Source of the DNA: Escherichia coli
GTDB lineage: Bacteria > Pseudomonadota > Gammaproteobacteria > Enterobacterales > Enterobacteriaceae
Assembly (NCBI RefSeq): GCF_030013595.1
Contig: NZ_CP122768.1
Strand: one strand, 5' to 3'
DNA length: 64,000 nt
Part shown: in pieces, positions 60,381 through 60,656 of the stretch
Numbering within the stretch: the stretch's first letter is position 1
Layout of the letters: each line of letters starts with the position of its first letter
Made by a program: the position numbers and the translations under genes
The notes under the pieces: generated by a model
What the model was told of the DNA's origin: nothing
Seen by the model: only the letters and a program-made list of their open reading frames with translations
Database searches by the model: none

Positions 60381-60656
60381 GTCGCATCAGGCGCTGGTTG
60401 TCGGATGCGGCGTGAACGCCTTATCCGACCTACGGTTCGGATTTGTAGGCCTGATAAGACGCGGCAGCGTCGCATCAGGCGCTGGCTGTCGGATGCGGCG
60501 TGAACGCCTTATCCGACCTACGGTTCGGATTTGTAGGCCTGATAAGACGCGGCAGCGTCGCATCAGGCGCTGGCTGTCGGATGCGGCGTGAACGCCTTAT
60601 CCGACCTACGGTTCGGGTTTGTAGGCCTGATAAGACGCGGCAGCGTCGCATCAGGC
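60381..60656. repeat. BIME: three tandem copies of an approximately 88-bp REP pair
   Basis: Unit GTCGCATCAGGCGCTGGCTGTCGGATGCGGCGTGAACGCCTTATCCGACCTACGGTTCGGATTTGTAGGCCTGATAAGACGCGGCAGC repeats three times with one or two substitutions. Confidence 0.85.

Follow-up and report, generated by a model that had tools for sequence, protein, structure and literature searches.

A tandem Y-Z2 REP array of strain-variable length between cpsB and cpsG in the colanic acid operon of Escherichia coli

Arrays of the BIME-2 type, their hairpins and the variation of their copy number between strains have been described since the 1990s. A BIME-2 is defined by Y and Z2 REPs that alternate in inverted orientation and are repeated in tandem with short linkers between them (Ton-Hoang et al. 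2012, PMC3333891). Within one locus the copies of a BIME-2 are well conserved and the linkers are variable, and the number of copies at a given locus differs from strain to strain (PMC3333891).

REP325 of E. coli K-12 (yjdM-yjdN), the source of naRNA1-6 (RF02564), is an array of alternating Y and Z2 REPs in tandem, situated between co-directional genes of one operon. It has been reported to attenuate the downstream gene ~8-10-fold in a partly Rho-dependent manner, and also to stabilise the upstream transcript (bioRxiv 10.64898/2026.03.23.713779). The same work describes the effects of REPs as strongly context dependent, finds 2-4 hairpins to be insufficient for Rho-dependent termination, and reports that REPs placed behind reporters did not always stabilise the transcript (bioRxiv 10.64898/2026.03.23.713779).

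REP insertions and deletions between cpsG and cpsB have themselves already been published, among O157 strains (Iguchi et al. 2011, PMC3158064); in that study single REPs of 34-36 bp were counted in six strains and discussed as possible recombination points. Stem-loops internal to polysaccharide operons headed by JUMPstart/ops are also represented by the attenuators of the group 1 capsule (cps) operons, for example the wzc-wbaP stem-loop of Klebsiella and of E. coli of the K30 type, where RfaH is thought to permit read-through of the stem-loop.

Here we describe a REP array at the cpsB-cpsG site in a stretch of 64,000 nucleotides of E. coli DNA, which is referred to below as the window. Tandem Repeats Finder returned a single array with a period of 88, 3.1 copies, 98% matches, no indels and a score of 540, and a repeat search of the window recovered the three copies in register, at a spacing of 88 nt and with 98-100% identity. 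An earlier reading of this DNA from its letters alone (the sequence-only reading) had proposed three near-identical copies of ~88 bp, which these searches bear out, at 60381-60656, an interval that ends at the right position and begins one base too late. It had also called the unit a palindrome, a description that we do not retain, as each unit is made of two separate REP palindromes, one Y and one Z2, together with their linkers. The three full units differ from one another at just two positions, the first being T at 60398 where the other units have C (60486 and 60574), and the second G at 60617 where the others have A (60441 and 60529). The 5' edge of the array lies ~1-2 nt past the cpsB stop codon and its 3' edge 90 nt short of the cpsG start codon (Table 1).

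Table 1. Features of the cpsB-cpsG gap, its flanking genes and the upstream JUMPstart element, in window coordinates
Feature	Position	Strand	Basis and remarks
JUMPstart with ops	45965..46003	+	Rfam RF01707, 57.3 bits (gathering score 35); ops GGCGGTAGCGTG at 45992-46003 by pattern search
cpsB/manC, mannose-1-phosphate guanylyltransferase	58942..60378	+	NCBIfam NF012004, 1110 bits; stop codon TAA at 60376-60378
Full array, assigned to BIME-2	60380..60656	+	units 60380-60467, 60468-60555 and 60556-60643, plus a 13-bp terminal partial unit 60644-60656
Orphan half-Z2 REP	60380..60392	+	sequence CGTCGCATCAGGC; the sole part of the array retained in K-12
Head-to-head linker, 7 nt	60393..60399	+	GCTGGTT in unit 1; GCTGGCT at 60481-60487 and 60569-60575
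Y-type REP no. 1	60400..60433	+	GTCGGATGCGGCGTGAACGCCTTATCCGAC + CTAC; fuzzy match to Y consensus; first hairpin of the naRNA4 model
Y-type REP copies 2 and 3	60488-60521, 60576-60609	+	equivalent to no. 1
Tail-to-tail linker, 11 nt	60434..60444	+	GGTTCGGATTT, same at 60522-60532; GGTTCGGGTTT at 60610-60620
Z2-type REP no. 1	60445..60480	- (consensus orientation)	GTAG + GCCTGATAAGACGCGGCAGCGTCGCATCAGGC as read on +; fuzzy match to Z2 consensus; second hairpin of the naRNA4 model
Z2-type REP copies 2 and 3	60533-60568, 60621-60656	-	equivalent to no. 1
algC RNA motif	60693..60742	+	Rfam RF02929; cmscan 78.2 bits (gathering score 33.8)
cpsG/manB, phosphomannomutase	60747..62117	+	NCBIfam NF011943, 1057 bits

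The protein family matches confirm that the flanking genes are cpsB and cpsG, as had been proposed, and the site of the array is the only large gap in an otherwise tightly packed operon: upstream, gmd, fcl, gmm, wcaI and cpsB follow one another with overlaps or with gaps of 2 nt, and 54 nt lie between cpsG and the downstream wcaJ. The gap had been described as holding a REP array, which is correct as far as it goes; what had been overlooked is the Y/Z2 substructure of the array and, downstream of it, a conserved algC RNA motif. The motif is situated shortly before the start codon of cpsG, outside the array, and its conservation extends to every E. coli allele examined as well as to five species of Enterobacter, making it the constant non-coding element of the gap. 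Its 3' part may pair with the Shine-Dalgarno region of cpsG, and the motif is relevant to any difference in expression between cpsB and cpsG.

Read on the plus strand, a unit opens with the 3' half of a Z2 REP, which a head-to-head linker of 7 nt (GCTGGYT) joins to a Y REP; a tail-to-tail linker of 11 nt (GGTTCGGRTTT) then leads to GTAG and the 5' half of the following Z2 with its loop. The array as a whole thus contains three Y REPs, three complete inverted Z2 REPs and one orphan half-Z2, that is, six hairpins plus a half. The predicted Y hairpin has an energy of -20 kcal/mol (z = -4.1) and the Z2 hairpin one of -23.4 kcal/mol (z = -4.6), while the orphan half-Z2 is predicted, in both co-transcriptional and full-length folds, to pair (P>=0.95) with the 5' arm of a Y or the 5' half of a Z2. 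For a region of 401 nt the predicted fold reached -193 kcal/mol, compared with -143 +/- 6 in shuffles (z = -8), and the structure of the array is therefore not a matter of chance. Small open reading frames that run over the array (e.g. 60412-60591 on the plus strand and 60387-60563 on the minus strand) were regarded as by-products of the repeat.

We consider the array to be a BIME-2, a member of the dispersed REP family of E. coli that reached its present form by gain or loss of whole units, with a probability of about 0.85. Taking as REPs those imperfect palindromes, 30-40 nt long, that carry the conserved tetranucleotide GTAG/CTAC at the foot, we found three Y (…ATCCGAC-CTAC) and three Z2 (GTAG-GCCTGAT…ATCAGGC) elements, each with 1-2 core substitutions relative to the consensus, which confirms the identification as a REP array made from the sequence alone and refines it to BIME-2. 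The elements are extragenic, lying between the cpsB stop (60378) and the cpsG start (60747), and they belong to a dispersed family, with matches to the query in 5425 of 5426 E. coli genomes and 12 matching places in the median genome. Y on the plus strand and Z2 on the minus strand alternate three times, and the arrangement is a tandem one, with 3.1 copies here and a number of units at the site that differs between strains. Two units also align at full length with the naRNA4 covariance model (RF02564), which was built on the Y-l-Z2 unit of REP325. The linkers are short (7 nt and 11 nt), and were characterised by length and sequence, not by the named S, s, l and r motifs. In composition, tandem and well-conserved copies, variable linkers and strain-variable number the array shares the features of the BIME-2 family in the Bachellier/Gilson classification (PMC3333891), and we see no difference in kind. 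BIME-1 with an IHF site was considered as well and ruled out, since the IHF consensus WATCAANNNNTTR was absent from both strands of the cpsB-cpsG gap and consensus matching gave no Z1 REP in the array.

The direct comparison with REP325 of K-12 (locus L011, 3806-4385) extends from the common architecture to the hairpin sequences, which are nearly identical in the two arrays. REP325 has a period of 100, 5.8 copies and 12 hairpins, whereas the cps array has a period of 88, three copies and six hairpins plus a half, and the linkers of REP325 (13 and 17 nt) are longer than those of the cps array (7 and 11 nt) by an amount that accounts for the whole 12-nt difference in period. The cps array differs further in that it has the opposite orientation with respect to transcription, lies in an ops/RfaH operon and is missing from K-12. 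The polymorphism described by Iguchi et al. 2011 (PMC3158064) concerns the same intergenic site and likewise consists of REP insertions and deletions between strains, but in units of single REPs; neither the Y/Z2 BIME-2 unit nor the series of 0-4 units nor the chimeric unit described below forms part of that account. As for the wzc-wbaP-type attenuators, they resemble the array as intra-operon stem-loops of a JUMPstart/ops-headed polysaccharide operon, but are single weak hairpins (~-8 kcal/mol) that are predicted to be Rho-independent, are not REPs and are not variable in copy number.

To survey the site across strains, a query of 600 nt that contained the two flanks only was run against 5,426 complete E. 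coli genomes. It recovered the locus in 4,668 of these; the other 758/5,426 gave no match to the flank query, and the region is therefore replaced or strongly divergent in ~14% of strains. Insert sizes were read from a systematic sample of 60 rows. Half of them (30/60) had an insert of 101 bp, corresponding to one unit; inserts of 189 bp (two units), 277 bp (three units) and 365 bp (four units) were found in 9/60, 2/60 and 1/60 rows, respectively. No unit was present in the 12/60 rows with an insert of 13 bp, nor in a further 5/60 with a REP-free, 10-bp-equivalent allele, and the one remaining row (1/60), strain E2348/69, matched in the cpsG flank only. A first sample, taken with a different query, agrees with these figures, and when the samples are pooled (n ~94) the proportions are ~29% with no unit, ~52% with one, ~13% with two and ~5% with three or four. 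The proposal that copy number here is variable between strains is thus borne out, the range at this site across E. coli genomes being 0 to 4 units.

Two kinds of allele lack the unit. In K-12 MG1655 the gap is 104 bp long and contains no unit, but exactly the 13-bp half-Z2 CGTCGCATCAGGC is kept (locus L001, 3567-3579, minus strand); these 13 bp may have been left behind when direct repeats recombined and the units between them were deleted, or they may be an older anchor to which units were added. In the REP-free allele (e.g. E. coli Z226-7) a TAG stop codon is followed by CAGTTGAATAATCAACCGGAATAAATCTCCGGC and by an unrelated small CCGGA/TCCGG hairpin, and this allele is only weakly alignable with that of K-12. 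Among unit-bearing alleles, a comparison of units from ten strains found most of the differences at linker offsets 17-19 and 62, with one additional position in a Y arm. The head-to-head linker is hypervariable, with GGT, GGC, GTT and GAT all occurring at offsets 17-19, and offset 62 is the variable site of the tail-to-tail linker; across the ten strains these variants occur in shuffled combinations. Arrays of three units were found in three distinct forms, in the window, in O104:H4 2009EL-2050 and in SC406, and expansion has therefore occurred more than once, independently. The O104:H4 strain, whose units run a b a, has the same CpsB and CpsG protein accessions as NCCP15648, in which they run a b a a.

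The units of the window also bear on how its own three-unit state arose. With respect to the two variable positions they can be written as U1 (T19, A62), U2 (C19, A62) and U3 (C19, G62), so that the middle unit combines its two neighbours exactly, as a chimera with the 5' part of U3 and the 3' part of U1, the signature of exchange in shifted register or of slippage. One such exchange, between U3 and U1, would give U2, which predicts a two-unit progenitor U1+U3, and at least seven genomes do contain this predicted allele, identical (100%) over 463 bp. On flanks identical to those of the window (0 mismatches in 199 + 190 nt) there is moreover a one-unit allele equal to U3, in WEM25, and a four-unit allele U1,U2,U2,U3, in Z1322HEC0003; the latter was surfaced by a synthetic query of eight units, the BLAST pieces of which re-used the same segment of the record. 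The alleles with one, two, three and four units form a stepwise series of whole units on one haplotype.

As judged from the anatomy of the array and from this allelic series, the gain and loss of units fits register-shifted homologous exchange or replication slippage. The allele data are also compatible with unit change mediated by TnpA-REP, for which BIME recombination in vitro provides a precedent (PMC3333891), and the distribution of cleavage motifs is suggestive in this respect, without separating the action of the transposase from slippage. The type I TnpA-REP cleavage motif, TGCC/TGAT (Ton-Hoang 2012, PMC3333891), is confined to the array's outer edge on the right (60650-60657, minus strand, TGCCTGAT), its place in the internal Z2 copies being taken by CGCCTGAT, and type II motifs are present at every CTAC.

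An outgroup set was obtained by scanning genome contigs with the algC-motif pattern, which gave five Enterobacter loci (E. mori, E. quasihormaechei, E. cloacae, E. wuhouensis and one MAG) and none from Escherichia, Salmonella or Citrobacter. At the same place, after the stop codon of cpsB and before the algC motif, all five carry a single REP, which ends in CTAC on the sense strand as the E. coli array does; it belongs, however, to another family (TGCCCGGTGGCGCTGCGCTTACCGGGCCTAC), is present in single copy and forms neither a Y/Z2 pair nor an array. The site has therefore been occupied by REPs independently in another genus, and the occurrence of a REP at the equivalent position points to a favoured insertion site or to a mild benefit. 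Alignment of the E. coli alleles with those of Enterobacter was ambiguous as to whether the ancestral state was the zero-unit, the REP-free or a unit-bearing one.

What the array might do depends on how it is transcribed. No sigma-70 promoter consensus was found on either strand of the cpsB-cpsG gap, none of the hairpins of the array is followed by a U-tract, and in 60200-60900 there were 0 terminator-like sites compared with 1.1 expected in shuffles; from a gap that lacks promoter and terminator consensus it follows that the array should be co-transcribed in the operon mRNA. The ops element is the site at which RfaH is recruited, and with JUMPstart/ops lying upstream in this operon, antitermination dependent on RfaH is implied for the whole colanic acid cluster, the REP array included. 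RfaH probably makes RNA polymerase on this operon resistant to Rho. The RNA of the array is in addition G-rich (C/G = 0.8), and it should for this reason be a poor loading site for Rho.

Within the polycistronic colanic acid message the array would contribute six hairpins, each of them stable (-20 to -23 kcal/mol), and would stretch the untranslated gap between cpsB and cpsG to 368 nt, where it would otherwise be 104 nt. If REP325 and other REPs are a guide, the hairpins would most likely block 3'->5' exonucleases and so stabilise the wza...cpsB part of the message, and they may add pausing or termination ahead of cpsG, wcaJ and wzxC, more strongly when there are more units. Our preferred view of function is that the hairpins, six in all, probably shield the upstream mRNA and cause some attenuation of read-through into cpsG and wcaJ. 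The orientation of the cps array, which is transcribed in the direction opposite to that of REP325, counts against the functional analogy, as do the findings on REP325 that two to four hairpins gave no Rho dependence and that REPs behind reporters did not stabilise every transcript. Whether the array has any measurable effect on expression of the operon we would call an even bet on this analysis, and an effect, if there is one, should be modest and dispensable. That it should be small is suggested by the JUMPstart/ops element, by the G-rich RNA (C/G = 0.8) and the lack of U-tracts, and by the nearly one third of strains that are free of the array; that the array is dispensable for the operon follows from the ~29% of sampled genomes, K-12 among them, that have no unit at all.

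The most serious alternative to such an RNA-level effect is that the array is a neutral or selfish passenger, a drifting BIME-2 in which the number of units changes by slippage with no measurable consequence for expression or fitness. We hold this to be quite possible, at somewhat less than even odds. It is in keeping with how common the zero-unit and REP-free alleles are (the same ~29%, K-12 again included), with the shifts in unit number on identical flanks, which indicate fast and recent turnover, and with the shuffling of unit variants, as in concerted evolution; RfaH/ops control should blunt termination, and reported effects of REPs are highly context dependent and often absent (bioRxiv 10.64898/2026.03.23.713779). 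On the other hand, ~70% of the sampled E. coli retain at least one unit at exactly this site, and the five Enterobacter species retain their own type of REP at the equivalent position, which together suggest that insertion here is strongly preferred or that a REP brings some benefit. Clear effects on neighbouring genes are moreover seen for REP325, an array of the same architecture.

A role at the level of DNA was also considered, in which the Y REPs would be strong DNA gyrase sites that relieve positive supercoils in a long and strongly inducible operon. BIME-2 elements are significantly enriched for gyrase cleavage sites in vivo, Y REPs being cut more often than Z2 and the cleavage being independent of transcription (Sutormin 2019, PMC6379681), and the array contains three Y REPs. 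Binding is nevertheless limited to a subset of BIME-2 elements (PMC6379681), and array-free strains have the same operon. We regard this role as unlikely, and it would be compatible with an RNA-level effect, the two not being exclusive.

The closeness of the array to cpsB raised the question of whether structure abutting the stop codon might stall the terminating ribosome and thereby tune down the translation of CpsB. According to the rule of Liang, Rudd & Deutscher 2015, in the form in which it is quoted in PMC12306157, REPs less than 16 nt from a stop codon stall ribosomes. The half-Z2 lies ~2 nt past the TAA and is predicted to be paired (P>=0.95), but the first complete REP hairpin begins 21 nt past the stop, beyond the <16-nt limit as quoted, and the pairing closer in is a thermodynamic prediction that competes with the canonical Y and Z2 hairpins. 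On these predicted structures, a down-tuning of CpsB would seem rather improbable.

Still more doubtful, in our estimation, is a stronger form of the RNA-level proposal, in which the series of 0-4 units would act as an evolvable rheostat that sets strain-specific colanic acid output. Each added Y-Z2 unit would then cut read-through into cpsG-wcaJ-wzxC, and stabilise wza...cpsB and/or lower the translation of CpsB. If this were true, the presence of Enterobacter's own REP family at the site would reflect selection for a 3' element after cpsB.

A naRNA4-like small RNA gene, or an element that organises the nucleoid together with HU, is disfavoured and in our judgement very unlikely. The Rfam model of naRNA4 (RF02564) did match two units at full length and above its gathering score (75.1 bits vs 59.5), but on the minus strand, antisense to the operon and where no promoter consensus was found, whereas on the plus strand, the sense of the operon, it reached 50.9 bits and so fell below the gathering score of 59.5. 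As only the minus strand passes and the cps mRNA is the complement of the REP325 transcript, the array was not treated as a naRNA4 gene. The model moreover recognises any Y-Z2 BIME-2 unit, for instance the one at 7038-7108 of the window, and the role of REP325/naRNA4 in nucleoid compaction was not reproduced in the 2026 study (bioRxiv 10.64898/2026.03.23.713779). The small RNA gene was therefore rejected on three grounds, the antisense-only match, the missing promoter and the generic nature of the model. Lastly, an intrinsic (Rho-independent) terminator that closes a gmd-cpsB transcription unit, as GC-rich hairpins in an intergenic gap might suggest, is scarcely credible in view of the absence of U-tracts and of terminator-like sites described above and of any promoter consensus ahead of cpsG to restart transcription, and both a terminator of this kind and an internal promoter in the gap were rejected when the consensus scan found neither.

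The preferred reading, that of a BIME-2 that has gained or lost whole units, makes the array a known type of element at a site already reported to be polymorphic, and its value as a discovery is small; its practical value is modest but real. Studies of REPs have been based on K-12, a strain that lacks the cpsB-cpsG array, and REP catalogues and expression studies built on that strain are for this reason uninformative about it. The natural alleles with 1-4 units on identical flanks are a ready dose series, to which zero-unit alleles such as that of K-12 can be added on more divergent flanks, and this series is suited to the question of whether REP number tunes polarity inside an operon controlled by RfaH. 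The array is also a length-polymorphic marker beside the O-antigen recombination hot spot.

Other REPs and structured RNAs were recorded elsewhere in the window. A Y-Z2-Y cluster of REPs occupies 7035-7159, where the naRNA4 model scored 64.5 bits (7038-7108), a Y+Z2 pair lies at 36713-36809, and single REPs are found at 13584-13618 and 43668-43707. Two SIB antitoxin RNAs (Rfam RF00113) were located on the minus strand at 29645-29787 and 29974-30122, with 142 and 149.5 bits, and the CyaR sRNA (RF00112) at 15441-15526, also on the minus strand, with 100.7 bits; SIB antitoxin RNAs and CyaR are known small RNAs of E. coli.
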